From NCBI GenBank assembly GCA_963674755.2, contig CAXXVS010000001.1, positions 1 to 64,000 of the forward strand: a stretch of 64,000 nt of DNA, in the 5' to 3' direction. Every line of letters begins with the position of its first letter. Within the stretch, counting starts at the first letter, position 1. The notes beneath the pieces were generated by a model. It was not told where the DNA came from and made no database searches. It was given only the letters and a program-made list of their open reading frames with translations. Position numbers and translations under genes: made by a program. Source of the DNA: Desulfobacterales bacterium (GTDB taxonomy: Bacteria; Desulfobacterota; Desulfobacteria; Desulfobacterales; UBA5852). Shown here piece by piece: positions 9,275-44,185 of the stretch.

Positions 9275-9898
<624 letters not shown>

Positions 9899-10286: not shown

Positions 10287-10288
10287 GT

Positions 10289-12223: not shown

Positions 12224-12236
12224 GCCAAGACCTTTT

Positions 12237-22686: not shown

Positions 22687-22727
22687 TGCATTTCTCCCAA
22701 CCTGATGACGCTGGCTATACGAAACCG

Positions 22728-23138: not shown

Positions 23139-23206
23139 CGGGCGGCCTGGGAAGGCGGATATGGTTCAGCAGGCCTGCAGGAAGGCCATCGTCGAAGGAG
23201 GAAAGT

Positions 23207-23612: not shown

Positions 23613-24023
23613 CTAACCGCCGCCGTTTTGATGCCCCGCCCGTGCCGGTGCCATCCCGATGATGCCCCGCCGTCCCAGTTCCCGCAGGAAGCGGGTCACG
23701 GCGGCTTCGGCTTCTTTGGGATGCACCCGGGTTTGGCGGGCAAATTGACTGGCAATCGCCTGAACGGAGCGCTTCCCATCGATCAACTCCCAGGTGCGGG
23801 TCCCCAGTTCATCCAACTCCAGTTGGCGGGCAGGCGGTGTGGTCGACGCCGCCCCAAACCGTTTGGCCAGTTCGGCGATCCATGGCTTGACCACGAGCGG
23901 ATAGCGCAAGCGGATGACGCCGGCTGCGGTGCGATGGGCGCTTACGGCCTCGCTTTTTACCGGGATACAGGCCAGGGCCTCATTCCTGGAAAGGGCGGGC
24001 CTCTTCTTTTTGAACAATCCCAT
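23613..24023 (-). CDS. PqqD/RRE-like peptide-binding domain protein
   Basis: LELDELGTRTWELIDGKRSVQAIA...FLRELGRRGII is the PqqD winged-helix pattern. Probable start MGLFKKK at 24023. Confidence 0.78.
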   Translation of the reverse strand: MGLFKKKRPALSRNEALACIPVKSEAVSAHRTAAGVIRLRYPLVVKPWIAELAKRFGAASTTPPARQLELDELGTRTWELIDGKRSVQAIASQFARQTRVHPKEAEAAVTRFLRELGRRGIIGMAPARAGHQNGGG

Positions 24024-24903
24024 AGGAACGGCATATCCTCTCGAAGGTTGCCTGGTCGGCCAAGCCCTCCACCCGCACGGCCAGGATGCGGTTGGCCCGG
24101 GAGCGGTGCCAGATACGTAACGCGTTGAGGGAATCGGGCGCCGACCGTCGCCAGAGCGCGCGCAGGCCCCTTCGCAGGTCTTTGACGCGCCATTGCCATT
24201 CGACCGTGTCCTCCACATATCGATAGGCTTCCATGGCAGCGGCCGGCGGGAGCAAGCCCATTTTCCCCGCCAGCCGTTTCAGATCCCCACCGCATCCGGC
24301 AAGCATCACATCGGCCGGACTCCAGCGCAACAGGGTCACACCTTCCCCTGAATGGTCGAAGCGCAGGGAGAAACGGCCGGCCTCGAACTGAAACTGCCGG
24401 AGCGTAAAGCGTTTGGGCAGGGTGGCGCGGATATCGTAGACGGCCAAGGACGGATCGGCATCCGGCCCATGGTCCCGGAAGGTCTTCAGCACCAGGGCCG
24501 CACTGCAAGAGACACCCTCGCCGTGGTCATAAAATTGGATCAGGGTGGCGCGGCGGCGGTTCCGGCAGAAATGGACGAGCCCCTGGCCTCCCACCCGGGG
24601 GCCCTGCCAGCTGAAGGCGCCCACCTGGGCGTCGGGTGGAAAGGCCGGCCATTCGGGCGGCATTGGCATCGGTTGCAGGGATGGGACGCCTTTGTTACGG
24701 CCCATCCGGGCCAGCTGCTTCAGGTGACGCGGCAGTGAAAAATGGCCCCGGATGACAGCGGTCTTCAATTCCATCACCGGACGGGATCGATATTCCAGTA
24801 AGGCATAGCCAGCTCCCAGAACACCGGTTTCCCACGCCGCCGGAATCCGCATGGCAATGCCGCACCAGGCAAAGGGTTGCGTAGCGCCTGGGCGACAACT
24901 CAT
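23980..24903 (-). CDS. Hypothetical cytoplasmic protein
   Basis: 307 aa ORF, co-oriented with the operon and overlapping the PqqD-like gene start. No signal peptide or TM segment evident. Confidence 0.7.
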   Translation of the reverse strand: MSCRPGATQPFAWCGIAMRIPAAWETGVLGAGYALLEYRSRPVMELKTAVIRGHFSLPRHLKQLARMGRNKGVPSLQPMPMPPEWPAFPPDAQVGAFSWQGPRVGGQGLVHFCRNRRRATLIQFYDHGEGVSCSAALVLKTFRDHGPDADPSLAVYDIRATLPKRFTLRQFQFEAGRFSLRFDHSGEGVTLLRWSPADVMLAGCGGDLKRLAGKMGLLPPAAAMEAYRYVEDTVEWQWRVKDLRRGLRALWRRSAPDSLNALRIWHRSRANRILAVRVEGLADQATFERICRSYGIVQKEEARPFQE

Positions 24904-25053: not shown

Positions 25054-25674
25054 TTATTGCGGGAGAAAGCGTTGCCAGTCTTTCTTCGTCATGGATCTCA
25101 GGGGTGGCAAGCGATCCCCGGGGGCTGTTTTTTCAGGGGGCTGACGGTCGAGATCGCATTGACGCTCTTCGTCTATGGCACTCAGTTGGGTGAGCTTGAT
25201 GGAATTGCCGAATTTTTCCTCTTCATCCCGATCATTATGGCTCAGATGAAGGGTGATCTTTTGGCCGTCCGCATCGATGAAAGACCATTTCCAATCAATG
25301 ACGATATGGAAGGGGTCGCCCTCGTAGGAGGTGGGTTTCCCGAAGCGTCGCTCCACACGGGCCAGCAGCGCATCGTAGAAGGCACGGCTGGCGTCGGCGT
25401 ATTTCAGTTTAATCCGTACGATGGTGCCGGGATGGGCACAGTCGCCATAAGCGATCAAGCCGCCTTTGAATCCGGGCTGGGGGGCGATTTCCACTTCCCG
25501 CAGGTATTCCTGGTAGCGCAGCGGGAGAGCCGTATCCATGAGGAGGCGGTCGCGTAGGGAAGCGATGTTCTGGCCGAGGGTGAAGCCCGCCACAGTATGG
25601 GGAACGTCGCCGGCCTGGCTGGGGGCGGCCACGAGTGTAATGAAAATGGCAAGAATGATGGCCAGAGGTTTCAT
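25054..25674 (-). CDS. Exported hypothetical protein
   Basis: Sec-type signal MKPLAIILAIFITLVAAPSQA, RBS GAGGGGG, hydrophilic mature region. Confidence 0.8.
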   Translation of the reverse strand: MKPLAIILAIFITLVAAPSQAGDVPHTVAGFTLGQNIASLRDRLLMDTALPLRYQEYLREVEIAPQPGFKGGLIAYGDCAHPGTIVRIKLKYADASRAFYDALLARVERRFGKPTSYEGDPFHIVIDWKWSFIDADGQKITLHLSHNDRDEEEKFGNSIKLTQLSAIDEERQCDLDRQPPEKTAPGDRLPPLRSMTKKDWQRFLPQ

Positions 25675-25732
25675 AATTTCCCCCTCATGTGGATGCGGAC
25701 GGATTCGCACGAGCGGTATACCCGCGTCTTTC

Positions 25733-27694
25733 TCAATATGCCAATCGCTGCAAGGATTTCAAGATCAGGGTGAACCCCATGGCGAACATACCCGTGAGTC
25801 CCATGCCGCATGAAAAGCCAGCCAAAAGCACCGGCGCATACTGCCGCCACATGGTCCCGTAACGCTTTAAAAAGAAAAAGCGTCCCAGGAGCGCGCCCGC
25901 CACCTCCAGAATCAGGCCATGGGGGGCACTTTGCCCCAGGCCGCGCACTACCCCGTAAATCAGCAGAATCGGGAGCCCCAGCAGGGTCAATATCATGTAG
26001 GTGACCACACCGAACCCGAAACCCGACAACAGGGAGGAGGCGCTGAGGGCCTGGAAAAAAAGGGAGTTGCCTTCGAGGGTCGCGGTCTGCATGAGCAGGG
26101 TGTTCAGGGCCTGCAGATGCCAGAGCTGCTGGGCATAGGGATAGCTGCCCGAGGGGATCGGGGCCAGGCGCCATATGAACTGGGAAAACAGCAGGCTGGC
26201 GGTCATCACCACCGGGAACACCACGATTTCGGCCTTGATAATGCCGCGGATGCTGGTTCCGGTCAGTTCGATCTGCCTGAAATTCACTGTCGCTTCCCCA
26301 TAATTGTGGATGGGGATGGGGGCGTACCAGATTTCGATGCCCTGGTAGCCGAAAAATTTGGCGCCGGCAATAAAGCTGGCCTCCCGGATGAGGGGCAGGC
26401 TGACAAATTGACCGGCAATGCCCTCCATGCGGGCCGTGATATAGGATACGATGGGGGTGTAAACGAATCCGTAGCAGACAAAGAAAATCCACGGAAAGCT
26501 GGGCACGAGCCACAGGCAAAGACCGATATAGGACAGGGTGGAGAAGACATAGATGCCGATGGAGATCCAGAAATTGAAATCCCCGCGGCCGGGGGGCGGA
26601 TTGAAAAGATCCTTCAGCGATCCGCGGCTCTGGGAGGCCTCCCGCTGGAAGGACTTGATGACATGCCAGATGCCGATGGCGGCAATGGCCAATCCCAACC
26701 CGATACCGAAGCTCATGTAAAAATCGAAATTGTTGGCAAAGATGGTATCGACGGTCCCCATGCCCGGATGCCAGCGGTGCAGGATGCCGTGCCGGAAGAG
26801 AATCGGGTTGGCCACAAAGGTGACGAGCAAGCCCAACAGCCCCCCCATGACCGCCCAGAACGGCAGCACCATCCCGACGAAAAGCAGCCCCAGGTCCAAT
26901 TGAATACCGGTGGCCACGGCCGGTAGAACATCTTCGGTGTGGAGGGTCAGATCGATCCAGGGGATGGGGATCAGCCGGATGGGCTGGGTGAACAATAAGG
27001 CCGAGACGGTGGGCAGCAGGACATAAATGGCGCCGAACAACAGCCCGATCATGCCCCCGATGGAGAAGACCCGCCATTTCCAGCCGGTTTTGCGGTCCTC
27101 GGTGGATTCGGCCAGGGCCATGGTGCCCAGGGCGCCCACGGGCGCCATGGGGAACGGCAGTTTTTCCACGTCCGAGGTGATGCGGTAGAGGGCATAGCCC
27201 AGACCGAACTGATCGATGCGCTGGATGATCTGGGCCCCGATCAGCAGCAGAATGGGGATCAGCCAGTCGCGATGAAAAAAGGTGCGCTCGACCAGGGAAT
27301 CCGAATTGACGGCCGGGGCGACCCAGTGGGGGATGAATTCGGTCAGACCGAGCATACGGGCGGCATCGGACTGAACGATGTATTGATTCCAGAGGAGCCC
27401 CTGAAAAGGGGACGCCATGGCCGCACCGGCCATGTAATAGAGCAGGAAGATTTCCTGCTGCTTGAGTTCGGTATAGGAGCGTTTGGCGATTTCCGCGAAA
27501 AGGATGATGGTCACCCAGCGGGCGGCCGGTCCGATGCCGCTGCCGATGACCAGTTGCAGGTACATGCTGCCCGGCATCATCAGGAAGCCGATGAAGATCG
27601 CCCCGACGACGGTCTTCCAGTCGAACCCCTCCTCGAAGTGGGTGGGGGGTTTGAGCAGATCCCGATACTCTTTGAGTTCCTTATCTTCGTACAT
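25733..27694 (-). CDS. Polytopic membrane protein, OPT-like putative peptide transporter
   Basis: Many hydrophobic helices, N-terminal FDWKTVVGAIFIG and an EKLPFP motif reminiscent of OPT transporters. Probable start MYEDKEL. Confidence 0.7.
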   Translation of the reverse strand: MYEDKELKEYRDLLKPPTHFEEGFDWKTVVGAIFIGFLMMPGSMYLQLVIGSGIGPAARWVTIILFAEIAKRSYTELKQQEIFLLYYMAGAAMASPFQGLLWNQYIVQSDAARMLGLTEFIPHWVAPAVNSDSLVERTFFHRDWLIPILLLIGAQIIQRIDQFGLGYALYRITSDVEKLPFPMAPVGALGTMALAESTEDRKTGWKWRVFSIGGMIGLLFGAIYVLLPTVSALLFTQPIRLIPIPWIDLTLHTEDVLPAVATGIQLDLGLLFVGMVLPFWAVMGGLLGLLVTFVANPILFRHGILHRWHPGMGTVDTIFANNFDFYMSFGIGLGLAIAAIGIWHVIKSFQREASQSRGSLKDLFNPPPGRGDFNFWISIGIYVFSTLSYIGLCLWLVPSFPWIFFVCYGFVYTPIVSYITARMEGIAGQFVSLPLIREASFIAGAKFFGYQGIEIWYAPIPIHNYGEATVNFRQIELTGTSIRGIIKAEIVVFPVVMTASLLFSQFIWRLAPIPSGSYPYAQQLWHLQALNTLLMQTATLEGNSLFFQALSASSLLSGFGFGVVTYMILTLLGLPILLIYGVVRGLGQSAPHGLILEVAGALLGRFFFLKRYGTMWRQYAPVLLAGFSCGMGLTGMFAMGFTLILKSLQRLAY

Positions 27695-27713
27695 CTTGAC
27701 GATCCGATCCGGA

Positions 27714-29714
27714 TTAGGAGGGCAGCACCTGGTAGCTGGCATCGGAAAAGAGTCCGACCAGGGCCCAGATACCCCCCATCAGGAAATCACCCACAATCAG
27801 TCCGATAAAGAGATAGCGGATCTTTCGAAACAAGAGCACCCCGCCGTAACGCATGCACAGGGCATTGCATAGCCAACCGATAAAAAAACTGAACCAGAGA
27901 ATGCGCATGGCCGAGCTGTAGCAGGTCAGGTAGCCGATGGGATGCAGTGGCCACCAGTAAAAACGGTGGTAGCCGAAAACGAGCAGCAGCATGAACACCG
28001 CTCCGGCCAACGCGAACATGCGAACCCAGTGGCTCGTCAGGGGCGGATTTTCGATCAGCGTTACGATATTCTCATAGGTATTCAAGGTGGTTCCGCTGGC
28101 CCAGTCCAGGCCGAGCTCGCGGATGCCATAGCGATAGGACAGGGCCAGCATGGCTGTGAAAGAGATGATCACACCGAGCATCAGGGCGATGGCGATGGTG
28201 GTGATGACGCGGCGATGCTGCTGGATTTTTTCGGTGATCCGGGCGGCATGCACGAGAGAGGGCATGAGGGATTCCCGCAGGTCGAGAAAAAGGGCCTTCT
28301 GAACGACCCCGGCCATGAAGATGCCGCCCGCTGAAAAGATACCCGCGCCGAAAAGGGTCATCACCCCGTCCAGGGGTGCGGCCGTCAGGGTGAAGTAGGC
28401 CAATCCGCCCTGGGTGATGATGCGGCTCGCCACCAGCATGAACATCAGAAAACTGAAGACGACCACGCCGGAGACCCACCAGCGCATGCCCAATCGGTGG
28501 AGCCAGAAAATGATCGCGGCCGTTCCGATCAGAAAGCCCCACCCTGCTATGCGGGAAGAAAACCACTCGGCCGGGGATGCCTGCGACGGTGCCCGCCCGA
28601 ACGTCTGGCGGCAGACATCCCTCAGATGATAGCGGGCCAGCCATATCAGAAACAGAAAGAAACTAAAGTAGGCTCCCACCATCTGCATTTCTTCGGGTCG
28701 GGCAAGGGTCGGGCCGAAGGTAATTCCCAGCGCGGCGGCCGGTATGTTGTACCCCATCACGGCCAGGACGCCGTAAAGCAGCCCGGCCAGGATGAAAAAG
28801 ACCCAGAAGGAGAAGGATATCTGGCGCGTGGTCAGAAAGGCAAATCCGATAAAGGCCGGATAGATATAAATCTTGAGTTTGTAGAAACCGGAAAAAAAAC
28901 CGTATTTGGGGAAATAGGGACCGGCCAGAATAAGGGTGGGAATCTGGGGCACGGCCGGATAATAGAAATTCAGTCCGTTGACCAAGTGAAGCACGGTCGG
29001 TATCAAAAGCCCCACCAGTAGGTAGCGGTTGCGCAGAAACGGGCCCATGGTACCCTGGGAATAGGCCTCCTCCATTACCAGCGGGACCCGCAGGAGGGGG
29101 AAGTTCATGCGTTCGTTGCGCAGCCACTGTTTGCTGAGAAGATTGACCAGGCAGATCATGACGCCGTAACACAAAAGGACGAAGGTCCCCCAGGACAGCA
29201 GCGGGGGTAGCCACACCTTCCAGGGTATCGCACGCAGCACCGCCAGCCACCCCATGCGCCGCCCGCCCGGCAGCCCGTTGTAAAGCGCGTTCACCGCCTC
29301 CGGGCTGCGGGGAAACCAATCGGCCGGCAGGAGGGGGTCGAGGATGTCGGCCCAGCGGTTTTCCGGGGTCGCGAAATGAAAAGGGGCTGTCAGATTGATG
29401 AAAAAGGTGCGCACGAGCCCCGTGTAGGCGATACCTGAGACGAGGACCATCAGGATCCATACAAACAGCAGCTCCTTGCCGTTCAACCAGGGCGGGCGTT
29501 TCATGAGCCGTCCGGCGCCGGCCATGATCAGGGCGAGCCAGAAAAAAATGAAAAAGGGCGCCAAAGGGAAATGGCCGCCCCCCAAGGGGGTGGCCTGCCG
29601 GAAGGCATTGTTGAACGGGGTCAGGACGCAGATGCCGCCGGCCAGCAGCAGCCCCAGCAGGATGGCGCGCGGCCGCAGGGAGGAAGACGTTGTGGACGAC
29701 ATCGGCTTTTCCAT
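27714..29714 (-). CDS. Polytopic membrane protein (resembles DUF6785/DUF6784 family, possibly OPT-related)
   Basis: RAILLGLLL, W...ERMNFPL and WWPLHPIGY...FFIGW...RYGG...LFIGLIVGDF patterns, many TM helices. Confidence 0.7.
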   Translation of the reverse strand: MEKPMSSTTSSSLRPRAILLGLLLAGGICVLTPFNNAFRQATPLGGGHFPLAPFFIFFWLALIMAGAGRLMKRPPWLNGKELLFVWILMVLVSGIAYTGLVRTFFINLTAPFHFATPENRWADILDPLLPADWFPRSPEAVNALYNGLPGGRRMGWLAVLRAIPWKVWLPPLLSWGTFVLLCYGVMICLVNLLSKQWLRNERMNFPLLRVPLVMEEAYSQGTMGPFLRNRYLLVGLLIPTVLHLVNGLNFYYPAVPQIPTLILAGPYFPKYGFFSGFYKLKIYIYPAFIGFAFLTTRQISFSFWVFFILAGLLYGVLAVMGYNIPAAALGITFGPTLARPEEMQMVGAYFSFFLFLIWLARYHLRDVCRQTFGRAPSQASPAEWFSSRIAGWGFLIGTAAIIFWLHRLGMRWWVSGVVVFSFLMFMLVASRIITQGGLAYFTLTAAPLDGVMTLFGAGIFSAGGIFMAGVVQKALFLDLRESLMPSLVHAARITEKIQQHRRVITTIAIALMLGVIISFTAMLALSYRYGIRELGLDWASGTTLNTYENIVTLIENPPLTSHWVRMFALAGAVFMLLLVFGYHRFYWWPLHPIGYLTCYSSAMRILWFSFFIGWLCNALCMRYGGVLLFRKIRYLFIGLIVGDFLMGGIWALVGLFSDASYQVLPS

Positions 29715-29736: not shown

Positions 29737-32700
29737 TCAGGTATATGCCGGCCCGGGCGCTGCTCCAGCGGTTTTGGCCGCCGTGGCCTTTTCCAATTCC
29801 TCTTCGTAGTGGGCCAGGGCCCACCCGTCCATGGATCGCCAGATTAAGAGCTGCTTGCGCAGGTTGTTGACAAAGGCCTTGTTGATGCGGCCCCAGGCGT
29901 TGACTTCGCCGGTCTTGCGCGTAAGACGGACCCGGATTTCCAGAAACCCGGAGTCCTCTTCAGCCGGGCAGAACAGAATCTCGACGTTTTGCATGATGCC
30001 GAAATCAAAGGGTGCCAGCCAGACGAGCGAGGACAGTTTAAAGCAGGCGGATACGGGGTCTGCGCTCGCTTCCGCGGCCCGTCCGCCGGCGCCGTCCAGG
30101 TTAAAATCGAACGCTATCTCACCGGTTGAGAAAAGTCCATGGGAAACGTCCTGATGCTCCGCGAAGTGGCTCAACAGAAAGCCCCCCAGGCTTTTCAGTT
30201 CGTTCTGCTTGATGAGAAAGGGCAGGGTAATTTCAAGCACGCTTTGCTCGGCATGGGGCATGCGCCATGACCGGTTGACGTCCGGGATGGCAATCTTGGC
30301 CGCCACGCGTGCCGGGTAAATGACGGAAATCAACACCACCAGAATAACCAGAATCATGGCGGCCACGCCGGCCAGTGAAGAATAGTTCACGGTAATCCCG
30401 GACCACATGGCGGTCTCGGCGAACAGCTTGGCGGTGGACTGGGCCACCAGGTAGCCCAGGACGACACTCAACACGGCGAAAGCCATGGCCTCGGCAATAA
30501 ATAAAAAAGCCACATGGGAGGGGGCCAGTCCCACCGAGGTGTAAATGCCGATTTCCCGGCGTCTTTCGTAGACACTGCCGATCATGGTGTTCAAGACGAT
30601 GAAAATGGAGATCACCAGGGGGATGAAAATGTTCGGCACCCCGCTGTATTGGATGGTGTCGCTGGAATGGTAGAGAAAGGTTCCGCCGGTTTCGCCGCTG
30701 AACAGCTCCAGGCTGAAACGATCCGTCAGCCGGCGAGCGGTCTGGCGGGTATTCGCATTGCCCGCCGGGACAAGGGCTACGGCCTTCAACCGGCCGCCGA
30801 TGGCTTGCAGGGCCCGGTAGGGCAGATAGATGGTCAGATCTCCGGCCGTATGCTGGTAGCGGCTTTGAAAGGTTTCCACGTCTTCCCCTGATTCGAGGGC
30901 TTCCATTTCGATTTCGGTCAGCTCGGCGGAGACCTCGCCGGGAAATGTCACGGGTGTCAGCGGTTCGCCGTCCAGATCCGTGAGGCTGTCCACCCGGCGG
31001 CCGTCGATGATCCCCATCACCTTGTAGCGGGCGCCCCAGAGACGGACTTCGGCATGATCGAGGTCCTCCTTCCGGATGCCCAGATCGGCGGCCATGCGGC
31101 GCGGAATGATGACGGCGTGGTCGGTATCGTTCGTGAACCAGCGGCCGGCCACGAGCAAACGATCCAGCCCGGTGATGCGCCCCTCGCAGGCCGCCAGTCC
31201 GACCATTCCCTGGGCCACGAACACCTGGTCGGCATGCCGGACGGGGATGCGGACCACGCGGGTCCGGTCGTCGTTTTCGAGCCACACCCGCGGTCCCACG
31301 GTCACCGTAGCAAAGGTATCGGACAGCGTTCCCAACGCTTCCGCGGGGAGATCTTTCCAGTTGGGTGTTTTAAGGAGGAATCCGTGGTAGGGCACTTCCG
31401 CCCGGAACAGGATGCGGGCATGCAGGCGGGAGGATTTGACCGATGTAAAACTCATGATCGTGAAGGTCAGAATAATCAGGGTGATGCAGGTCAGGGCGGT
31501 CCGCAGGCGGCGGCGGCGCAGGTTGCTGACCCCCAGGAAAAAGGCCGCCACAAAGGCTTTCCAGCGGCTGATTTCTTCGGCCCCCTTGCGGGAGGCACGA
31601 TTCTGGAGCTGGGTCATTTCTTCTTCGAAGCGTAAAAAGATGATCAGGGTTACAATCAGGGACAGGCCCATGATGAAAAAGGCCAGGATGACCACCATGG
31701 GGCTGTAAGCCAGGTCAAAAGCCGGATGAACGTTATAGATGACCGCGATGAGGGCGATCAGCACGCCGCTGAACGCGATGATCCGCTTGTGGATGTTGCG
31801 GAAACCGAAAAGCAGGCGCTCCGCGCAGAAGGCAAAGGGCACGAACAGGGCGATGTAAAACAGGACGCCGAAAAGAACGTCGCGCTGGGTTTCTTCGACC
31901 TGATTGTAAACCCGGCTGGCCAGGGCCCATGAGCGGGTGGCTTCTTCCATGAAGCGGTCGTAGGTTTTTTCCGCCAGCGCGCGCCGGGCGTTTTCCAGGG
32001 CCGTGCGGCCCTCCTCCTCCAGGGTGCGCAGCTGTTCGTTATTGATGCCGTTTTGCTCCAGGCTTTGCAGCCGCGGATCAAGCAGACGCCACATGTCCTG
32101 GGCCGCATGAAATTCGGTGTGGTAGAGGCGGGGCCAATTTTCGACCAGGTAGCCGATGCCCTCGGAGCGCCGGGGTGTGGCGTTGGTGAGAATCAATTTT
32201 TTGTTCAGAACCGAATCCGAGAGGGTCAGTTTGAAGCGCGTCTCCGGTTCCAGGTAGAGGCTTGTGAGAATGGAAGCACGCGTATCGATACGGCTCCACC
32301 AATAGCGCAACGGTTGGGCTTCCAGGCGGCCGTCCAGCAGGTCGATTTTGGTCATATAGTGAAAGCTGCGGGGGGCCAGCAGATCGAATAGCGTGGTCTG
32401 GTGGCAGGCAAACATGATGAGATCGGTTTCCATCTGGTTGCGCTGCATTTTTACGCGATAGGCGCTTTTACCGGTGGCTTTTTTATCGATGGCCCACAGG
32501 GTTTGCCCGGTGGCGGGATCGAAACGGTACGCCTCCAGGATGACCTTGTCATAGACGAGCTTTTTGTCGGATAGGCCACGGAGTTCGAAGCGGCCCATCT
32601 GGTCGACCATGAGGTGGTACCGGGCCGGTCCCTGGAAGGCCAGAATCATCGTACCCGGCGCGGGGAGTTCGGCAAACAGCTCGCCGTGCCGGATGAACTT

Positions 32701-34647
32701 GGCGCGACCGGTCAGCGTGGAGAGCCCGTCGCGGGGGTATTCGTCGGAATGCAGGACCGGCTGGCCGGCCAGTTTATGCACCAGCGCGGATACCAGGCGA
32801 CTTTGCCGGGCGGCAAAGGACCAGTCGATTTTCCCCATCGTGTCCCAAGGGGTTCCCCAATGGTCGCGAATGTCATGGGTGGTCGCCAGGGAAATGCCGT
32901 GCAGGCCTGCCATGGCGCTGATTTCACCGCCCATCGGCGGGTGATCGGGAAGATAGCTCTGCCAGGATTTAATACGGCTGGGGCGCAGGCTGTCTTTAAA
33001 GAGGGACGGAAGCCCGTTCTCCGCTTCGACCGTGGCCGCACTCTCCCGGAGGACATCGGCCAGAACGCTGTAAGGGGCTGTCATGGCGCTGGCGCGCTGG
33101 GGCCGCAGGGCATAGTGCCAGCCCTGGTTGAAGGCGCCCAGGCCGTCGCCATGGCTTGACAGGTGGAGCGAAATCAGAATAGCCAGGTCGTGGTCGCGGA
33201 CCACCCGCCGGAAGGCCATGACGTCCTTGAGAAGAGTGAGTTGCTGGCGAGCGTCCGCGGCGACGGCCCTGGCTTGGGCGCGTGCCCCGGGAATCAGCCG
33301 GTCGAGCATCTCCCGCTCGGGGCTGCTCAGTGCGCTAAAACGGCTTTTCCAGCTCAACTGCCGCAGGAGCCGGCGCTGATCCGCCAGGGCCCGGATCGTA
33401 TGGTCTTCCTTGGAAGGATCCGCTTTCAAGCGAAGCCGCATCAGGCGGCGGGAAACCTGGTCGGATTCGGTCTTGATGGCATCGAGCATCGCCCTGACGA
33501 GGTCTTGGTCCGGGGTCTCATCCGCCAGGGCCGCCAGACGCAATTTTTGGGCTACTTTGTCGGCCAGTTTGGCATCATCGGATAACTGCTTGCGTTTGAT
33601 GATAAATTCTTTGGATTTGGCATGCAGGCTCCACACGGCCTCCCGCATCCCGGCCAGCCCCTGGGCGTGGCCGGCGGTGGCCAGCAGGAGCACCGCGCGG
33701 GACGGCGGGTGGTGTTTCAAATAACGGGCCAGCTCCAGGAGGGCGGCAATGCTGCCGGCTTCATCGGCCCCCGGTGAGACCCCTGCGACATAGGACGTGC
33801 TGTCGTAGAAGGCCTCCACCACGATGAGCTCCTCCCGCAGGGCGTCGTCCCGGCCCGGAACCAGGGCGTAGATGTTGTCGGCCAAGACGTTCTGCCAGGC
33901 AATCGGGGCAGTGAGATGCACCGCGCTGCGCAAGAGGCCCGGTGCCAAGGGATTGTCGCGGGCCAGATTGGCCTGCAGCGCTTCATAGGTCACCCAGAAC
34001 CGCGGGAAGTCGATGGGGGTCAATTCGTATTTTTCATAAAACAGCGGCCGCCGGGAGGCCCCCCGATCGATGTAAATCAAGGCCCGGGCACCCAGATTGG
34101 CGGCGTTCTGCCAGTTCTTGCCGGAGGTCATTTCCATGAGGACGATGGCATTGTGCACATCGAGGCCGTTGAAGTCGGCCAGGTTGCCAGGTCCGACATA
34201 GATCAGCGGCCCCCGGACGCCTTCGGGAGGAAGGGTGCCCGGCGAAATGCTATTGGCCAGCAGCGGCCGCAAGGGCAGGGGCGGCGTGTCGGAATCGAGG
34301 CGCAGGGTACTCCCGTGGTCCTGGCGGACAGGCACCTGCAGCCGGAAGCGTCCCACGGTGTCATAGCCTTGTTCCTGGAAGACCTGCTGGATGTAATCGG
34401 CGGCCTGGCGGGCGCCGTCGCTGCCCGTACGGCGGTCGCCGTAGGCGGACAGGATCCGGATGTCGTCGGTCAGCGCCGCTGGCCCGGCCGCCCCGGCGGG
34501 TTTGCCAGGAAGGAGCCACACCAGCAGCAAGGCCAGGCAGATGATGGCCGCTCCGCGATACAGAGAGGGCAACGGCAAGGGGTGCCGCTCTGCCGGCACG
34601 GCGCAGAGTTTCCGGGTCGGCAGAGCATGGGCGGATATACGCAGCAT
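29737..34647 (-). CDS. Giant FtsX/MacB-like ABC permease with N-terminal PA + M28-peptidase-like ectodomain
   Basis: Signal/TM segment, then RRTGSDG, GPLIYVG (PA) and PGADEAGSIAALLELAR (M28-like). Then a TM block, NLRRRRLRTALT, a MacB-like periplasmic region (LVAGRWF) and the FtsX motif SVYERRREIGIYTSVG. Start 34647 or 34671. Confidence 0.85.
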   Translation of the reverse strand: MLRISAHALPTRKLCAVPAERHPLPLPSLYRGAAIICLALLLVWLLPGKPAGAAGPAALTDDIRILSAYGDRRTGSDGARQAADYIQQVFQEQGYDTVGRFRLQVPVRQDHGSTLRLDSDTPPLPLRPLLANSISPGTLPPEGVRGPLIYVGPGNLADFNGLDVHNAIVLMEMTSGKNWQNAANLGARALIYIDRGASRRPLFYEKYELTPIDFPRFWVTYEALQANLARDNPLAPGLLRSAVHLTAPIAWQNVLADNIYALVPGRDDALREELIVVEAFYDSTSYVAGVSPGADEAGSIAALLELARYLKHHPPSRAVLLLATAGHAQGLAGMREAVWSLHAKSKEFIIKRKQLSDDAKLADKVAQKLRLAALADETPDQDLVRAMLDAIKTESDQVSRRLMRLRLKADPSKEDHTIRALADQRRLLRQLSWKSRFSALSSPEREMLDRLIPGARAQARAVAADARQQLTLLKDVMAFRRVVRDHDLAILISLHLSSHGDGLGAFNQGWHYALRPQRASAMTAPYSVLADVLRESAATVEAENGLPSLFKDSLRPSRIKSWQSYLPDHPPMGGEISAMAGLHGISLATTHDIRDHWGTPWDTMGKIDWSFAARQSRLVSALVHKLAGQPVLHSDEYPRDGLSTLTGRAKFIRHGELFAELPAPGTMILAFQGPARYHLMVDQMGRFELRGLSDKKLVYDKVILEAYRFDPATGQTLWAIDKKATGKSAYRVKMQRNQMETDLIMFACHQTTLFDLLAPRSFHYMTKIDLLDGRLEAQPLRYWWSRIDTRASILTSLYLEPETRFKLTLSDSVLNKKLILTNATPRRSEGIGYLVENWPRLYHTEFHAAQDMWRLLDPRLQSLEQNGINNEQLRTLEEEGRTALENARRALAEKTYDRFMEEATRSWALASRVYNQVEETQRDVLFGVLFYIALFVPFAFCAERLLFGFRNIHKRIIAFSGVLIALIAVIYNVHPAFDLAYSPMVVILAFFIMGLSLIVTLIIFLRFEEEMTQLQNRASRKGAEEISRWKAFVAAFFLGVSNLRRRRLRTALTCITLIILTFTIMSFTSVKSSRLHARILFRAEVPYHGFLLKTPNWKDLPAEALGTLSDTFATVTVGPRVWLENDDRTRVVRIPVRHADQVFVAQGMVGLAACEGRITGLDRLLVAGRWFTNDTDHAVIIPRRMAADLGIRKEDLDHAEVRLWGARYKVMGIIDGRRVDSLTDLDGEPLTPVTFPGEVSAELTEIEMEALESGEDVETFQSRYQHTAGDLTIYLPYRALQAIGGRLKAVALVPAGNANTRQTARRLTDRFSLELFSGETGGTFLYHSSDTIQYSGVPNIFIPLVISIFIVLNTMIGSVYERRREIGIYTSVGLAPSHVAFLFIAEAMAFAVLSVVLGYLVAQSTAKLFAETAMWSGITVNYSSLAGVAAMILVILVVLISVIYPARVAAKIAIPDVNRSWRMPHAEQSVLEITLPFLIKQNELKSLGGFLLSHFAEHQDVSHGLFSTGEIAFDFNLDGAGGRAAEASADPVSACFKLSSLVWLAPFDFGIMQNVEILFCPAEEDSGFLEIRVRLTRKTGEVNAWGRINKAFVNNLRKQLLIWRSMDGWALAHYEEELEKATAAKTAGAAPGPAYT

Positions 34648-34651
34648 GGGG

Positions 34652-35395
34652 TTAGGCTCCCGCCCGGGCATCGATGCGGCCCACGGAAATGGTCAATTCT
34701 TCCCGGCTTTCGATTTTATCGATTTGTCCGTCGCGGATCCAGACCACCTGATCCGAGACATTGAGCATCTTGATGTCGTGGGTGGCGGAAATAATGGTCA
34801 CGCCCCGTTCGTGGCTGAGATTTTTCAACAGGGTGATGATCTCTTCGCCCGTCGTCAGATCGAGGTTGCCGGTGGGCTCATCCGCCAGGATGATGGCAGG
34901 ATCGTTGGCCAGGGCCCGGGCCACGGCCACGCGTTGCTGCTGACCGCCCGAGAGTTCGAAAGGTTTGTGCTGAAAACGATCCGCCAGCCCCACCAGACCA
35001 AGCAGTTCCATGCCCTTCTCCACCGCCCGTTCGCTGCGCATGCCGGCAAAGGTCATGGGCAGGGTGACGTTTTCCAGGGCGGTCATGACCTGGATAATGT
35101 TGAACGTCTGGAAAATATAGCCGATCTTGCGGCACCGCAGCCAGGCCAGCTCGTAGGCATCGAGCTGGGAAATGTCCACCTCGTCGATGAACACTTTCCC
35201 GGTGGAAGGTTTGTCCAGCCCGCCGATCATGTTGAACAGGGTGCTTTTGCCGGATCCCGAAGGTCCCATGATGGAGATGTACTGGCCGGTGGGGATTTCG
35301 AGGGTGACACCCTTCAGCGCCTGGACGGTGACCTTGCCCATCTGAAACGTTTTGGTGACATTGGAAACGCGCACAATATTTTTGATGTTGGACAT
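34652..35395 (-). CDS. ABC ATP-binding protein, LolD/MacB family
   Basis: GPSGSGKST, IGYIFQTFN, LSGGQQQRVAVARAL, ILADEPTGNLD and ATHD. Start MSNIKN after RBS GGAAGGA. Confidence 0.94.
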   Translation of the reverse strand: MSNIKNIVRVSNVTKTFQMGKVTVQALKGVTLEIPTGQYISIMGPSGSGKSTLFNMIGGLDKPSTGKVFIDEVDISQLDAYELAWLRCRKIGYIFQTFNIIQVMTALENVTLPMTFAGMRSERAVEKGMELLGLVGLADRFQHKPFELSGGQQQRVAVARALANDPAIILADEPTGNLDLTTGEEIITLLKNLSHERGVTIISATHDIKMLNVSDQVVWIRDGQIDKIESREELTISVGRIDARAGA

Positions 35396-35457
35396 GGCGG
35401 TCCTTCCCTTAAGGGCGTGAAGGGGGGCGGCGCCGGACGGCAGGCGTCCGCCGGTCG

Positions 35458-36156
35458 TCAATGCTCCACACGCATGGCTTCCACCGGTTGCATACGGGCG
35501 GCCACGAAAGCCGGATAGAGAACACCCACAACGCTCAGCAGACACCCTACCCCGGTCGCCACAGCAATGGAAAGGACGATGTCCGCAGCCGACGGTGTGG
35601 TCAAGGCCTGGAGTCCGAAATGAAGCGTGTTGCTGGCGAGGGCAAACGCGGCCCCGGTCAGCGCACCGAGGCCGGCCCCGGCCAGGCCCTGCATGACCGC
35701 CTCCAAAAGGAACAGGCGAAGGATGAAGCGGTCCAGGGCCCCCAGGCATTTCATGGTGCCGATTTCCCGGAATCGTTCGGTGACGGCCATCAGCTGGGCG
35801 TTGACGATGCCCACCACACAGACCAGCAGTGAGAGCACGACGATCCAACGCTGCTTGGGGCTGCTGTCGGCCCGGGTGTCTTCCGGACCGAGGTCGTAGC
35901 CTGAGCGGATCAGGGCCTGCCGCAAGGTGGGGTCACCGGTGGACAGCAGCCCGTTGGCCACATCGGTGCCGACGGACACGAAACTCAGAAACGAAACCGC
36001 CAGCACCAGACTCATGGTGGTGATCAGGGAACGGAAGAAGCGCACCCGAATACTGTTGAAGGCAATTTCAAGCGATTTGCCCATGGGCAGAACGACCTGC
36101 CGATGAATGCGCGGCGTCTCACCCAGCGTGGCAATGGTCTCCTCGGACGTCGTCAT
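35458..36156 (-). CDS. Small FtsX-like ABC permease (minimal periplasmic domain)
   Basis: GIVNAQLMAVTERFREIGTMKCLGA...LFLLEA...YPAFVAARMQPVEAMR. Confidence 0.9.
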   Translation of the reverse strand: MTTSEETIATLGETPRIHRQVVLPMGKSLEIAFNSIRVRFFRSLITTMSLVLAVSFLSFVSVGTDVANGLLSTGDPTLRQALIRSGYDLGPEDTRADSSPKQRWIVVLSLLVCVVGIVNAQLMAVTERFREIGTMKCLGALDRFILRLFLLEAVMQGLAGAGLGALTGAAFALASNTLHFGLQALTTPSAADIVLSIAVATGVGCLLSVVGVLYPAFVAARMQPVEAMRVEH

Positions 36157-36202
36157 GGGCCTACCGAAGCTTTCTGCGCCCCACCCGCCGGGGGCGCCTT
36201 GA

Positions 36203-37792
36203 TCACGTCTTATTGATGCGATTTTCTCCGCGGGCATGCCGCGCCTGTCGATGCCTTTGCTTGCGCTGGTGGTCTTCCCAGTCGGATTTGATTTTGTGGG
36301 TGCGTACCCGATTGAAGCGTAGCGGTAGCAATTTTACAGCGATACCGTATTGCCGCAGCTGGCCGGCGGTGAACATTTCGGCCGTGACCGGCGGTGCGGA
36401 CGGACTGGCGGAGACCCAGGTCCGGATATAGGTCGGCCAATCATCGAACTTGTTCATATAGATAGTCATATTTTCGGGGTTGCCAATGGCCAGGCGGTCG
36501 TTGCAACCCTCGTACATATGAAAGTCGGGCACATGCAGGTAGTTCAGATCGAGGGTTGCCAGCGCGGGCAGCGGCGTCTCGAAAAGCAGGTCCGGACGGC
36601 CGCGCAGGACGACGTCGTAGCGGATGCCGTGTTCCTTTGCATAGGTCTGGCGCAGCCGGTTGCACATTTTCAGGCCGTAAAGCTGCTGGAGATAACCCTG
36701 CAGGCCGACTTTGAGCAGGCAGTCGCGGCCGTTTTGCAGGCCGCCTTCATCCAAGGGGTGATCGGCAACCACCCGGAGGACGGTCGGGTTCAACAGGGAT
36801 GCGAAACGGGCATCTTCATCCTCCGGAACATACATGAAAAGGTCGTAGCGGCCAAGGGGGGCGAGCAGATTCGTCCGAATCGAACGATAGGTCCGGTCAA
36901 GGCCGCAACAGCGCCCCGAGAGGCATACGGCGACCCGCGGGGAAGGCCCCACGGTGACGGCGGGCCGGGGTCTGATGGATTCCAGCTGCCGATGTTTGAT
37001 CAGCGGATGGTTCGTCCGCCAGTGCCGGGCAAGCTCGGATGGGGTGATACGATAGGAGCAATCTTTTTTACGCGGTTTTCCCGGTGCCGGCGTGGGGCTG
37101 TTGGGGGTTTCGGTATTCAGGGCCGGACGCAAGGCGTCCCTGAGAGCGGTGGCCAGAAAGGTGGTGGGAATCGACCAATATTTTTTACGCTGGAAATAAC
37201 CCCTGCGGCGGGCGTTGGTGGTGGTGACCAGATTACATTGAATCCGGTGGGGGTGATAGAGCAGGCTCGCCATATGATTGATGAGGTGCTGGGAGTAGAG
37301 CCAGGACTCGCTGTCAAACCCGGTGTAATAGGGCAGGAGAAACGAGAGGGTCTCCCGGTGGAAGGCGTTGAAAAGCCCGTCGATGTTGTGTCCGAGGTTG
37401 ACGGCGCAGCCCTTTTCGTAATGCTGCCAGTCGTAGCGCGTGTAGCCCACCGCTGGCTCCCACTCCAGAAGAAAACGCTCGAAGGTCCGAAAGGGGTTGC
37501 CGCTCAGGGAGATACCGAGTTGTCGGGCCAGGGCTGCGTCTTCCCGCACGACGCAGTCGTCATCCATGAAAATATAGTAGAGGTAGTCGTTACCCGTGGC
37601 GCGGGTGCGCTCCCGGGCTTCCCACAGCAGCCGGTTGCGTCCTTCGTTCCAGCTGGACCCCGGCAAATAAAGCGTGCCGCCCCGGGGGGCGGGGACCTGC
37701 CAGTTCAGCACGATCCGGTCGCAGGCCGGATCGGGGATTTCCGGGTAGGGAATGCCCGAGGCCGTCTGGATGAGATAGATGAACGGCTTCAT
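36203..37792 (-). CDS. Two-domain putative glycosyltransferase-like protein
   Basis: N-domain SWNEGRNRL...YYIFMDDD (GT-A-like DxD). C-domain VAVCLSG...YDVVLRGRPDL...NDRLAIG resembles an uncharacterised GT-like family. Pro-rich linker between them. Confidence 0.6.
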   Translation of the reverse strand: MKPFIYLIQTASGIPYPEIPDPACDRIVLNWQVPAPRGGTLYLPGSSWNEGRNRLLWEARERTRATGNDYLYYIFMDDDCVVREDAALARQLGISLSGNPFRTFERFLLEWEPAVGYTRYDWQHYEKGCAVNLGHNIDGLFNAFHRETLSFLLPYYTGFDSESWLYSQHLINHMASLLYHPHRIQCNLVTTTNARRRGYFQRKKYWSIPTTFLATALRDALRPALNTETPNSPTPAPGKPRKKDCSYRITPSELARHWRTNHPLIKHRQLESIRPRPAVTVGPSPRVAVCLSGRCCGLDRTYRSIRTNLLAPLGRYDLFMYVPEDEDARFASLLNPTVLRVVADHPLDEGGLQNGRDCLLKVGLQGYLQQLYGLKMCNRLRQTYAKEHGIRYDVVLRGRPDLLFETPLPALATLDLNYLHVPDFHMYEGCNDRLAIGNPENMTIYMNKFDDWPTYIRTWVSASPSAPPVTAEMFTAGQLRQYGIAVKLLPLRFNRVRTHKIKSDWEDHQRKQRHRQARHARGENRINKT

Positions 37793-37796
37793 CGGG

Positions 37797-38798
37797 TCAG
37801 TCCGCCTCCAGGGCGGCCGTGTCTTCCAACCAGGCCGTCAAAAGGTCGAGCTCCCTTTCCGGGACAAGGGCCGCCCGGGCCAGGTTTGCATAGACGGTAA
37901 AGAGATTGTCGCTGATGGAGGCCTCCGTCCGAACGTCTTCCTGCACCAAAGACATGATGCGTTCCGCTTCCATATAGAGGGGCAATTCGGAAGCAAAGTC
38001 GGCCTGCAAAACATGGGCATTGCGCGCCTGCCGGACGGTGGGGCCGGAAAAGCCCAGGTGATAGCCGGCGGCCCACAGGATGGGTTGGGCCACATAGCCC
38101 CGCAGGATGTCCGTGACCCGGAAATTCACATGGGCCGGCAGGTACATCAGGGGCAGCAGTTCCCGCCGGAAGGCGGTGTTTTGAGAGTTGAAGGGGGAGA
38201 AGGTGCCCGGCGGGAGCACCACCGGATCCCGCCGGGCAAACCGGCAGGGCCGGTTGACGGTGAGCCGGTAGATGGCGTCCACGTCCGGGTCGTCGTCGGC
38301 CAGGGCCTGCCAGATACCGATGCGCACCGGTTGGGCCGTCAAGGCCGCCGGGTCGATGGCGGATTCCGGGGCCGTGATGCGGGTCAACGGGAACCCCCGG
38401 GGCCAGATCGACTGACGGGTGAAAAGGCTGTAAATATTGACCGCCTCGCATCCGGCCGGAATCTGGGCATAGACGCCGTTGAATTCAGGAAAGGTCCAAG
38501 CCCCCTCCGGCAGGTTGTCGTCGTCGCTTTCGGCGACCAACGGCGTACCTTCCCGGGCGGCCAGCAGATAGCCGATCATCTTGCGGGCGTAATGGTTCCA
38601 GGGCAGTTCCGGGATGATCCGGAAGCCGAGGGTTTCCTGTTGGGCCGTGGAAACGAAGCGCACCCCGGGGCAGTGCCAGTCCCGGGGGGTTTTTAAATCG
38701 CCCACCACGAGCACGTCCCAGTCTTCCAGGGCCGCAAATTGCCTCACGGCCGGCGTGGGCGGATGGATGGATGTCAACACTACGGTGTTCTTCATCAT
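37797..38798 (-). CDS. STELLO/DUF288-like (GT75/RGP-related) putative glycosyltransferase
   Basis: VLTSIHPPT...WDVLVVGDLKTP.DW...LPWNHYARKMIGYL.A...ESDDDN, IWPRGFPL, DPDVDAIYRL, PFNSQNT and FRVTDILRGY. Confidence 0.78.
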   Translation of the reverse strand: MMKNTVVLTSIHPPTPAVRQFAALEDWDVLVVGDLKTPRDWHCPGVRFVSTAQQETLGFRIIPELPWNHYARKMIGYLLAAREGTPLVAESDDDNLPEGAWTFPEFNGVYAQIPAGCEAVNIYSLFTRQSIWPRGFPLTRITAPESAIDPAALTAQPVRIGIWQALADDDPDVDAIYRLTVNRPCRFARRDPVVLPPGTFSPFNSQNTAFRRELLPLMYLPAHVNFRVTDILRGYVAQPILWAAGYHLGFSGPTVRQARNAHVLQADFASELPLYMEAERIMSLVQEDVRTEASISDNLFTVYANLARAALVPERELDLLTAWLEDTAALEAD

Positions 38799-39574
38799 GG
38801 GATCAGGTCCCGCATATCCACGACGGTCAGGCGCGGATGCTGGCTCAGGATTTCCAGCAAGCGCTCCAGAAAAGCGAAGGCGGCCGCGTTCATGCGCTGA
38901 TGGTGAATCATGATGCCGCACCTGGGTCGGCTCAAGCCCTGGGTGAGGGCTTCTTTCAATCGCTGCCAGCCCACGGCGGCGGGGGCCCGGTCGGTATGCA
39001 AATCGACGCTGACCGGAAGATCAGGAAGCCCCGGCGGTGCGGGGGGGCGGCTGCCCCGGCTGCGTGAAACCGCCTTATAGCCCATTTCCTCCAATAGCGC
39101 CAAGGTGGTTTCCGAACAGCGGTTCCAGGGGGGCGTGAACAGAGGGGTCAGGCGCGTTCCCATAATGGCCGCCAGACGCTCCCGGCCGTGGGTGAGGTCG
39201 CGGGCCAGGATCTCGCGGGACCGGGACGGGCCGAATTCCTGCTTTTTCCCCTCGGATTCGTGATTCCGGTGGCGCCATCCGTGCTGGTGCCAGCACCAAC
39301 GGTCCGGCCGGTCGCCGCCCATGGCGCACAGGGCCTGCCAGCGCGGTGCCGTCAGCCAGGCGGGCACCACCGCCAGGGCCAGCGGCAGGGCGTGACGATT
39401 GAAGAGCTCCAGCAGGCGCGCTATCTGCCGGCCGGGAACGGCCACATCGTCGGCGCGGAAAAAGACGGCCGTGGACGCCGGGTGCGGCTGATCGGCTTCC
39501 TGGCAGCAGGCTGTCAGTTGAAGCGTCCAGTCGGGGGGCAACCCCTGCCACAGCGCCGCGGGAGCCTGCTTCAC
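38795..39574 (-). CDS. Polysaccharide deacetylase (NodB/CE4-like)
   Basis: FFRADD, HQHGWRH, FTPPWN and IMIHH motifs. GTG start overlaps the upstream TGA, RBS GGAGGTG. Confidence 0.82.
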   Translation of the reverse strand: MKQAPAALWQGLPPDWTLQLTACCQEADQPHPASTAVFFRADDVAVPGRQIARLLELFNRHALPLALAVVPAWLTAPRWQALCAMGGDRPDRWCWHQHGWRHRNHESEGKKQEFGPSRSREILARDLTHGRERLAAIMGTRLTPLFTPPWNRCSETTLALLEEMGYKAVSRSRGSRPPAPPGLPDLPVSVDLHTDRAPAAVGWQRLKEALTQGLSRPRCGIMIHHQRMNAAAFAFLERLLEILSQHPRLTVVDMRDLIP

Positions 39575-40743: not shown

Positions 40744-41465
40744 TTAAGGCGCGCCCCCTCGGCCGCCGGCCGGGGTTCGAGGGCCAATGCGTTCATGTGT
40801 TCCAGCTCCAGGTCGTTGTCCCGCAAGACCAAGCGATGCAGGCAATAGGGCGCCATGCGTTCCACCGGCAGGCCGCAGTTTCGAAGGATGGCCAGGTGGT
40901 AGACAAGGCCTTTCATGAGGCCTTCATGGGTCACCACCAGCAGGCGCTGCCGGGGCCACTTCCGGCCCGCTTTCAGCAGCGCCCTGCGGGCCCGCGACAA
41001 GACATCGAGGTGCGATTCACCCCCGGGCGGGCAAAAGGACCAGCCGCGGGCCTCTTCCTGATGGAATCGTGCCCGGTGGCGGGTGCGAATGTCATCCATG
41101 GAACAGCCCGTCCAGGCGCCCCAGTCCTGCTCCCGCAAGCGATCATCGCTGCTCAGGGGCAGATGGAGGGTCTGGTTGATGCCGCGGGCCGTGGCGAGCG
41201 CCCGGCCGGTGTCACTGCTGAGCACCTGCTGAAGCGCGAGATCGGCCAGTTGCGGGCCCCAGCCGGTGGCCCACCGCTGGCCCTTTTCGGTCAGGGGCGA
41301 ATCGGCCTGCCCCTGAATGCGTCCGGCCGCGTTCCATTCGGTGGGGGCATGGCGCATGAGATAGAAGATCGTTTTCCGGTGTCGGGCCTGCGTCGCGTGC
41401 ATGGGGTTTCCGTTTTGGAGGTGTTCGTACAGGGCCGCCGATGGTGATACAGCGGTTGGCGTCAT
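40740..41465 (-). CDS. Histidine phosphatase (phosphoglycerate mutase superfamily)
   Basis: MRHAPTEWN, SSDTGRA, LREQDWGAWTG, PGGES and VTHEG. ATGA overlap with the upstream gene. Alternative start 41402. Confidence 0.88.
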   Translation of the reverse strand: MTPTAVSPSAALYEHLQNGNPMHATQARHRKTIFYLMRHAPTEWNAAGRIQGQADSPLTEKGQRWATGWGPQLADLALQQVLSSDTGRALATARGINQTLHLPLSSDDRLREQDWGAWTGCSMDDIRTRHRARFHQEEARGWSFCPPGGESHLDVLSRARRALLKAGRKWPRQRLLVVTHEGLMKGLVYHLAILRNCGLPVERMAPYCLHRLVLRDNDLELEHMNALALEPRPAAEGARLK

Positions 41466-44030: not shown

Positions 44031-44185
44031 GCCACCGACCATCGGGATCCCCGGGATTTGGAATGCTGCAAACAATTTCGGAGATCGCATCCCGGGTCAG
44101 GCGCTTCTCCGATGGGGTTTTTATTACCTGAAATGACAATGCATAGCAAGTATGAGATTGGACGGGCCCAATCATGCAAAACGCC

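Follow-up and report, generated by a model that had tools for sequence, protein, structure and literature searches.

The window analysed here, the 64,000-nucleotide stretch at positions 1 to 64,000 of contig CAXXVS010000001.1 from a Desulfobacterales bacterium (assembly GCA_963674755.2), contains an operon with a giant permease gene. The 1644-residue product of this gene, an open reading frame on the minus strand at 29737-34671 present in one copy in the source genome, carries a region resembling M28 peptidases (32830-33840) together with the permease of an ATP-binding cassette (ABC) system. An earlier note on this DNA had proposed that the M28-like region has lost its metal ligands and catalytic glutamates and acts as a substrate-capture domain. 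On balance we consider it probable that the protease-associated (PA) and M28 parts form a non-catalytic binding head working with a neighbouring pair of membrane proteins that resemble the oligopeptide transporter (OPT) family, the nature of the cargo and the direction of its movement being less sure. The giant permease is arranged as follows (aa, amino acid positions; TM, transmembrane segment).

29737..34671, minus strand: giant permease, in the order signal/TM, PA-M28 pseudo-peptidase, beta domains, helical bundle, three extra TMs, FtsX/MacB module, cytoplasmic tail
33907..34224, minus strand: PA domain, about aa 150-255 (Pfam PA E 5.6e-05, just under the cut-off; top fold matches PA-M28)
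33628..33888, minus strand: first half of the M28 core, aa 262-348 (F288 at 33808-33810, D303-E304 at 33760-33765, H335-A336 at 33664-33669)
33193..33624, minus strand: helical insert within the M28 domain, aa 350-493, the least conserved region
32752..33192, minus strand: second half of the M28 core, aa 494-640 (H503 at 33163-33165, E583 at 32923-32925, R602 at 32866-32868, W605-G606 at 32854-32859)
31882..32730, minus strand: remaining ectodomain, with beta-rich domains at aa 648-850 and a three-helix bundle at aa 852-930 (secondary structure of the model)
31627..31878, minus strand: three extra TM helices, aa 932-1015 (hydropathy)
30292..31494, minus strand: type VII module, consisting of TM1, a periplasmic domain at aa 1082-1340 and TM2-4 (FtsX), from Pfam FtsX and profile matches
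29797..30279, minus strand: cytoplasmic C-terminal domain, conserved

Pfam matches are present to PA (aa 152-233), Peptidase_M28 (aa 266-346, E 8.6e-10, above the cut-off) and FtsX (aa 1349-1460, E 1.6e-12). Hydropathy indicates a single signal or anchor at the N-terminus, followed by three helices (aa 932-1011), one (aa 1060-1078) and three more (aa 1348-1451), from which aa 63-930 and aa 1082-1340 would lie outside the membrane. An AlphaFold2 model of aa 60-935, built on an alignment of 64 sequences, has a predicted local distance difference test score (pLDDT) of 95.7 and a predicted template modelling score (pTM) of 0.93. It matches the Aeromonas aminopeptidase (1amp) with Z 27.6 and a root-mean-square deviation of 2.5 A over 258 residues, and the B. 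subtilis PA-M28 aminopeptidase with Z 28.3. A wide fold search of 48,161 representatives gave the same order, with the transferrin receptor at Z 24.4, GCPII at 21.9 and the GPI transamidase chain at 18.9; Foldseek is consistent with this ranking, and the ESM Atlas returned solely M28-type clusters, at 0.91-0.93. As modelled, then, 32830-33840 has the M28 alpha/beta fold with a PA domain, so that the fold and the retained PA segment claimed in the earlier note are borne out in the comparison with aminopeptidases that it had suggested. By profile and structure together the best matches are the PA-M28 aminopeptidases of Aneurinibacillus (AM-1, 2ek8) and B. subtilis (YwaD/BSAP, 6hc6) and the Aeromonas enzyme, which share with the giant permease the fold, the PA insertion and the structural motifs R80, D290 and T607-P608-x-D610. 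Unlike them, the giant permease has replaced ligands and general base, a shorter D117 loop, a 145-residue insert that divides the M28 domain in two (14 to 769 residues in relatives, n=58) and a fusion to a membrane motor.

The two zinc ions of the Aeromonas aminopeptidase are bound by H97, D117, E152, D179 and H256, here numbered sites 1 to 5 (available excerpt of PMC7522609), and E151 is the general base. All five motifs that had been reported as altered are found inside 32830-33840, namely VEAFYDS (aa 285), PGADEAGS (aa 300), TAGHAQG (aa 332), LISLHLS (aa 499) and HWGTPWDT (aa 604). The HMMER alignment places F288 at the position of H97, H335-A336 at E151-E152 and G606 at H256. The strand motif, together with distant relatives that have Asp there, points to H503 as the counterpart of D179. 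The D117 loop lacks one residue compared with active enzymes, seen as a gap in the HMMER alignment, and D303-E304 is still present, leaving E304 or a deletion at site 2; counted from GA, the Gly or Ser that starts the following helix comes fifth in 266 of 274 matched family sequences and sixth in the Aeromonas enzyme. The proposed loss therefore holds for sites 1, 3, 4 and 5 and for E151, but not as a clean loss at site 2. Set against known classes, the window protein has neither the five zinc ligands nor the general-base glutamate of an active M28 enzyme, with His at the latter position. It likewise departs from the one-zinc M28 enzyme glutaminyl cyclase, which uses sites 2, 3 and 5 (Asp, Glu and His; same excerpt), as sites 3 and 5 are A336 and G606. 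The fold is kept, the catalytic set is gone and the domain is under selection, a combination of the transferrin receptor and nicastrin kind.

The extent of these substitutions was read from three sets of sequences: a close set of 121 (the best 120 of 383 matches and the query, so that the window protein and the database entry of this same protein are both counted), a diverse set of 83 (the query and 82 of 150 listed representatives, with 67 sequences shorter than 1100 residues and one with a long N-terminal extension left out) and a pooled set of 356, of which 286 cover all sites, with fragments and near-copies included and close relatives over-represented. In the close set F288, H335, H503 and E583 are each present in 121 of 121, G606 in 120 and E304 in 117. 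The check by ortholog alignment that the note had called for thus finds the substitutions almost fixed, and this rules out sequencing error or chance as the cause of the lost ligands. Across the diverse set, site 1 is Tyr in 55, Phe in 15 and His in 4; position 304 is Gln in 33, Glu in 18, Ser in 13 and Ala in 11; position 335 is His in 76; position 336 is Phe in 38, Ala in 9 and Glu in none; position 503 is Asp in 65 and His in 12; and position 606 is Asp in 51, Gly in 23 and His in 1. Not one of the 286 pooled sequences has four or five canonical-type ligands, three have three and 262 have one when site 2 is read at position 304; read at 303, 149 have one and 129 have two. An acid occupies the general-base position in a single pooled sequence, site 3 is mostly Ala (120) or Phe (91) and site 1 Phe (154) or Tyr (115), and H335 (273), E583 (264), D600 (274) and R602 (277) are widely kept.

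The lack of any pooled sequence with four or five canonical ligands led us to reject an ordinary active M28 peptidase, and a canonical enzyme is, as judged from these alignments, very unlikely. A Ser-His-Asp triad was also rejected, because position 291 is Ser in just 54 of the 83 diverse sequences. Nor is the domain decaying locally: compared with 60 close relatives, the two halves of the M28 core have identities of 0.68 and 0.57, against 0.59 for the MacB-type periplasmic domain, 0.43 for the insert, 0.84 for the three extra helices and 0.86 for FtsX. The alignments indicate a pocket that is remodelled and conserved, not simply eroded. Named close relatives, all from Desulfobacterales or Deltaproteobacteria, are mostly labelled 'M28 family peptidase', and because of this label too many peptidases are probably being counted in sediment genomes.

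The pocket occurs in two types, F-D-E-H-A-H-G as in the window and Y-E-x-H-F-D-D. The pair at positions 503 and 606 is His/Gly in 137 and Asp/Asp in 119 of the pooled sequences, H503 being clade-specific and Asp standing there in most distant relatives. In a quick tree of the membrane region (83 rows, several long branches) the window type forms a single clade with SH-aLRT 92. Four of twelve full-length genes from the same phylum (L019-L022, in genomes G178, G042, G114 and G080) have Tyr, Gly, Lys and Lys, respectively, at residue 335; in the three most changed R602 is also gone and H503 is Asp or Asn where aligned. These genes are nonetheless full length, the ATPase and small FtsX genes still adjoin them, and an OPT-like gene 70-75% identical is present in the genome, making this lineage a natural test set for pocket function. 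A few divergent members (P0205, P0254, P0257, P0228, L049, L024 and L095) keep His at site 1 (7 of 286) or, in P0257, at site 5; having at most three canonical ligands, they may represent steps of ligand loss.

These patterns bear on whether an active site has been rebuilt. Going by the geometry of the Aeromonas enzyme, E304, H335 and H503 would lie near the old second-zinc position, and this candidate trio could possibly hold one metal; in distant relatives E303, H335, D503 and D606 are putative alternative ligands. With a single metal so held, a cargo might be slowly hydrolysed, transferred or cyclised in step with the ABC cycle. Consistent with such an enzyme are the near-fixation of E304, H335, H503 and E583 in the close set and the constancy among 60 distant metagenome proteins of H335 (58 of 58 aligned), D503 (60 of 60), D606 (58 of 60) and R602 (60 of 60). 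In the Aeromonas aminopeptidase the E151H change reportedly lowers activity roughly 2000-fold. The engineered protein is nevertheless called 'functional' in the titles of its PDB entry (2anp) and paper, by which it keeps some activity, and one-zinc M28 enzymes do exist in glutaminyl cyclase (PMC7522609, same excerpt). However, the candidate ligand sets differ between clades, the trio being clade-specific and lost in four of twelve intact operons, three of which also lack R602, and sites 3 and 5, which glutaminyl cyclase needs, are Ala and Gly here. A binding pocket can be retuned between clades and catalytic residues rarely are, so the switch of residues 503 and 606 between His/Gly and Asp/Asp favours a binding head; the differing ligand sets and the four genes without H335 weigh against catalysis. 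A rebuilt active site therefore seems unlikely to us, though it is the foremost of the alternatives to the binding head.

M28-fold pseudo-enzyme receptors are textbook knowledge in eukaryotes, with transferrin receptor and nicastrin as examples. The transferrin receptor is a PA-M28 pseudo-peptidase with a non-catalytic binding ectodomain, a single-pass dimer that binds protein on its surface. It shares the PA and M28 folds with the giant permease (Z as above; profile E 4e-09) and is, in the model comparisons, the closest pseudo-enzyme by fold; it differs in its substitutions and in having no ABC or OPT partner, and catalysis was probably lost independently in the two. The analogy drawn in the earlier note fits transferrin receptor by this fold match and is loose for nicastrin, which shares the M28 fold but scores 12.5 bits by sequence and has no place among the listed fold matches. 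A core-only profile built from 29 short-insert relatives and run against the PDB ranks nicalin first (39.6 bits, E 3.5e-09); the E151H enzyme (37.5 bits), YwaD (36.6) and wild-type Aeromonas aminopeptidase (31.6) follow, and nicalin and the family have in common a loop that comes after the YD motif. Among the short-insert relatives Pfam M28 matches 28 of 29 and Nicastrin weakly 2 of 29. Neither nicalin nor nicastrin is among the 50 matches listed in each of three fold searches (lowest Z 17.8 in the wide search), which does not exclude kinship. When the profile was confined to the M28 core's second half, it matched no M28 protein.

These comparisons raise another explanation, in which the domain would scaffold or gate protein clients in the manner of nicalin, nicastrin and GPAA1 in eukaryotic membrane machines, and the complex would act on envelope proteins or peptides as they are moved outward. 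All three combine the M28 fold with a membrane complex (Z 18.9 for the GPAA1 complex), and nicalin belongs to a complex for membrane-protein biogenesis (available excerpt of PMC7505659); the linkage of a PqqD-type peptide-binding protein, described below, would also suit this role. On the other hand, nicalin leads by a margin of 3 bits, and with the PA domain included active aminopeptidases score 91 and 88 bits against 31 for nicalin. The loop deletion of the family is absent from the nicalin alignment, the recurring neighbours include neither translocon nor protease genes, and the partners of the eukaryotic proteins are others (TMEM147/NOMO, presenilin and the transamidase). Special kinship to nicalin or nicastrin is a lead only, and we regard a scaffold as improbable, ranking it behind a rebuilt active site.

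The preferred reading, that of a binding head, also involves the motor to which the domain is fused. Two adjacent genes probably complete this motor.

34652..35398, minus strand: ABC ATPase of the LolD/MacB/FtsE class
35458..36237, minus strand: small FtsX-type permease of 259 aa, likely the second half of the motor

The full-length profile of the giant permease matches MacB, YtrF, LolC and LolF, and its C-terminal half contains a four-TM FtsX module with the periplasmic domain between TM1 and TM2; by sequence it is a MacB/Lol-type (type VII) permease. PF12704, which we take to be the MacB periplasmic domain, is precomputed in 16 of 120 listed homologues. The ATPase finds LolD, MacB and FtsE as top matches, all under their equivalog cut-offs and LolD nearest, and the small FtsX gene adjoins it in 11 of 12 same-phylum loci, the twelfth being cut by a contig end. 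The fusion to a type VII, MacB-like ABC permease described earlier is thus supported by module, profiles and neighbouring ATPase alike. Proteins of the MacB type respond to ATP binding with movement of the periplasmic domain, form no channel of their own and do not pass cargo through themselves (available excerpt of PMC5985334), and by analogy with this family the periplasmic domains of the giant permease would receive ATP-driven mechanotransmission. LolCDE likewise pairs two different permeases, has the four-TM FtsX module with a periplasmic domain following TM1, and relies on a separate ATPase of the LolD class. Unlike MacB, LolCDE, FtsEX and YbbAP, the giant permease has an 870-residue ectodomain, three extra TM helices and a cytoplasmic tail, and, unlike known type VII systems, it has a minimal second permease, a linkage to OPT-like proteins and no MacA, TolC or LolA among its recurring neighbours.

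Further partners are encoded downstream of the giant gene, and the OPT-like protein, absent from the earlier note, alters the likely mechanism.

27714..29714, minus strand: DUF6785/DUF6784 polytopic membrane protein, homologous to the OPT-like neighbour
25733..27742, minus strand: OPT-like polytopic membrane protein of 669 aa, the most constant partner
25054..25710, minus strand: predicted exported protein of 218 aa without known family, near close relatives only
23980..24903, minus strand: conserved soluble protein of 307 aa without known family
23613..24218, minus strand: PqqD-family small protein of the peptide-binding type (Pfam PqqD E 2.5e-11), with the true start probably downstream of the open reading frame start

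An OPT Pfam match (PF03169) is found in 5 of 46 aligned relatives of the OPT-like protein (best E 8.9e-10) and not in the window copy; some records from Armatimonadota and other phyla name such relatives 'peptide transporter' or 'OPT/YSL family transporter'. The model of the protein has a pLDDT of 88.2, and its profile found no match in the PDB. The DUF6785 protein aligns to it over the N-terminal 200 columns (hhalign 91.6%, E 8e-07). The shared polytopic build of about 650 residues is that of the OPT/YSL transporters (TC 2.A.67). In prokaryotes their genes often lie beside peptidase genes, and peptidase fusions are known as well; they are predicted peptide importers and were described in 2011 as biochemically uncharacterised (available excerpt of PMC3061005). 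Here, unlike stand-alone OPTs, two OPT-like paralogues are linked with a pseudo-peptidase and the ABC motor that carries it.

Of 201 genomes of the phylum, 11 have a full-length giant gene, and these same 11 have the OPT-like gene; other matches are weak and partial. Among 80 distant loci, the best of 525 confirmed metagenome loci, the OPT-like gene is present in 58, the PqqD-type gene in 26, and DUF6785 and an ATPase in 23 each; small FtsX is present in 39 by a loose count that perhaps includes cross-hits to the giant protein. The OPT-like gene starts no more than 1.5 kb downstream in 49 of the 66 distant loci with that much sequence. Where 6 kb is available on both sides (16 distant loci), OPT-like is found in 12, PqqD in 9, the 307-aa family in 9, DUF6785 in 8, the ATPase in 6 and small FtsX in 4.

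Known OPTs are stand-alone proton-coupled carriers. In the mechanism that we propose, the old peptidase pocket (the aromatic residue at site 1, His335, residue 503, Glu583, Asp600 and Arg602) would bind a peptide or peptide-metal chelate without cutting it. As in MacB, ATP cycling by the LolD-like ATPase would set the periplasmic parts of both FtsX subunits, giant and small, in motion, and this movement would release the cargo or hand it on. The three extra helices, the predicted partner-binding surface, would dock the OPT-like pair, which would carry the cargo across the inner membrane and deliver it to the cytoplasmic PqqD-like and 307-aa proteins. We prefer import as the direction, which is less sure than the pairing of head and OPT-like proteins. 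A more far-reaching version, tentative and in our view rather doubtful, is that the receptor-bearing motor is physically joined through the three helices to an OPT-fold pair which ATP loads or drives; this would be a transporter of a new class, with the fold of a secondary carrier incorporated in a primary importer, kept across several phyla and retuned in its cargo by the pocket swaps.

Several points speak against a binding head serving OPT-like carriers. First, the OPT-like assignment comes from Pfam matches in five of 46 members and from database names, with no PDB match. Second, the co-occurrence counts are among kin and not independent. Third, with the ATPase in 6 and small FtsX in 4 of the 16 fully flanked loci against 12 for OPT-like, the ATP motor may not always belong to the unit, or may be encoded elsewhere. 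Fourth, H335 is retained in nearly all pooled sequences, and His at this position is the very change in the 'functional' E151H enzyme. Fifth, the ligand and contacts of the head are predictions, and any metal in it is hypothetical. Finally, to our knowledge the type VII systems described so far export, extract or relay signals, and none of them is an importer.

The genes upstream of the operon suggest a different cargo. On the same strand lies a block of glycosyltransferase genes (36350-44090, minus strand; genes 36203-37792, 37797-38921, 38795-39679, 39571-40743, 40740-41465, 41462-42964 and 42819-44090) encoding DUF7796, STELLO-like, polysaccharide deacetylase, two GT28-like, histidine phosphatase and GT4 proteins. 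The complex could accordingly extract or export a glycoconjugate made by this block in Lol or MacB style, with the pseudo-peptidase as acceptor. That the GT28, GT4, histidine phosphatase and deacetylase genes (38795-44090) are co-oriented with the operon, that a GT28-type gene stands beside it in 6 of 12 same-phylum loci and a deacetylase gene in a seventh, and that the ATPase is nearest LolD are all consistent with this role. None of the 80 distant metagenome loci has these genes, however, and the OPT and PqqD-type partners point to peptides; we consider a glycoconjugate exporter the least probable of the alternatives.

Every part of the system belongs to a known family, and what appears new is the fusion and the operon. 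A full-text literature search, with supplements and most subscription papers outside its reach, found no paper on either and nothing on DUF6785. The proteins that a Fervidibacter paper lists as detected include an OPT transporter and an M28 peptidase, possible members of the giant-permease system. If the preferred reading is true, the giant permease is a bacterial M28-fold pseudo-enzyme receptor built into an ABC motor, and a type VII ABC serving OPT-like carriers would widen the role of mechanotransmission and give a handle on the prokaryotic OPT proteins. The question is directly testable, given a soluble ectodomain predicted at high confidence.

The giant-permease system occurs in sulfate reducers, Armatimonadota, Latescibacterota and Gemmatimonadota. 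One genome-collection scan returned 2 loci, and a plasmid search gave no match. In one metatranscriptome the operon is overlain by seven short near-identical pieces, at a depth of 2-3.4, which, without a silent control stretch, are not evidence of expression. Two other parts of the operon gave no matches in profile searches of the PDB, namely the C-terminal cytoplasmic domain of the giant permease, also without a family match, and the 307-aa protein; by eye, the former may resemble a START/SRPBCC-like fold and the latter a tandem PsbP/DcrB-like fold.

The loci vary in several further respects. Nine relatives of the giant permease (L052 at 5390-13387, L059, L060, L064, L065, L067, L075, L096 and L100) are 2400-2670 residues long, with an insert of 500-770 residues in the M28 domain and no small FtsX gene seen at those loci. 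OPT-like proteins of about 805 residues, some 140 more than usual, are encoded at L055 (8732-11146), L057, L076 and about ten more loci, in three of which a cNMP-binding protein is next. The exported protein at 25054-25710 has counterparts in 2 of 12 same-phylum loci, each with the same type of pocket as the window protein, and in none of the 80 distant ones; several of the 12 end before its position. Other recurring neighbours in the 80 distant loci are mostly housekeeping genes, apart from a tetratricopeptide repeat (TPR) protein that lies directly upstream of the giant gene or DUF6785 in 10 (L056 at 1397-1936 and nine more). Finally, genes at 19668-23539 on the plus strand converge on the operon and encode an MsbA-like ABC exporter with a split ATPase domain and cNMP-binding, anti-sigma-like and STAS-like proteins; a homologue of the MsbA-like exporter is also near the operon in L018.

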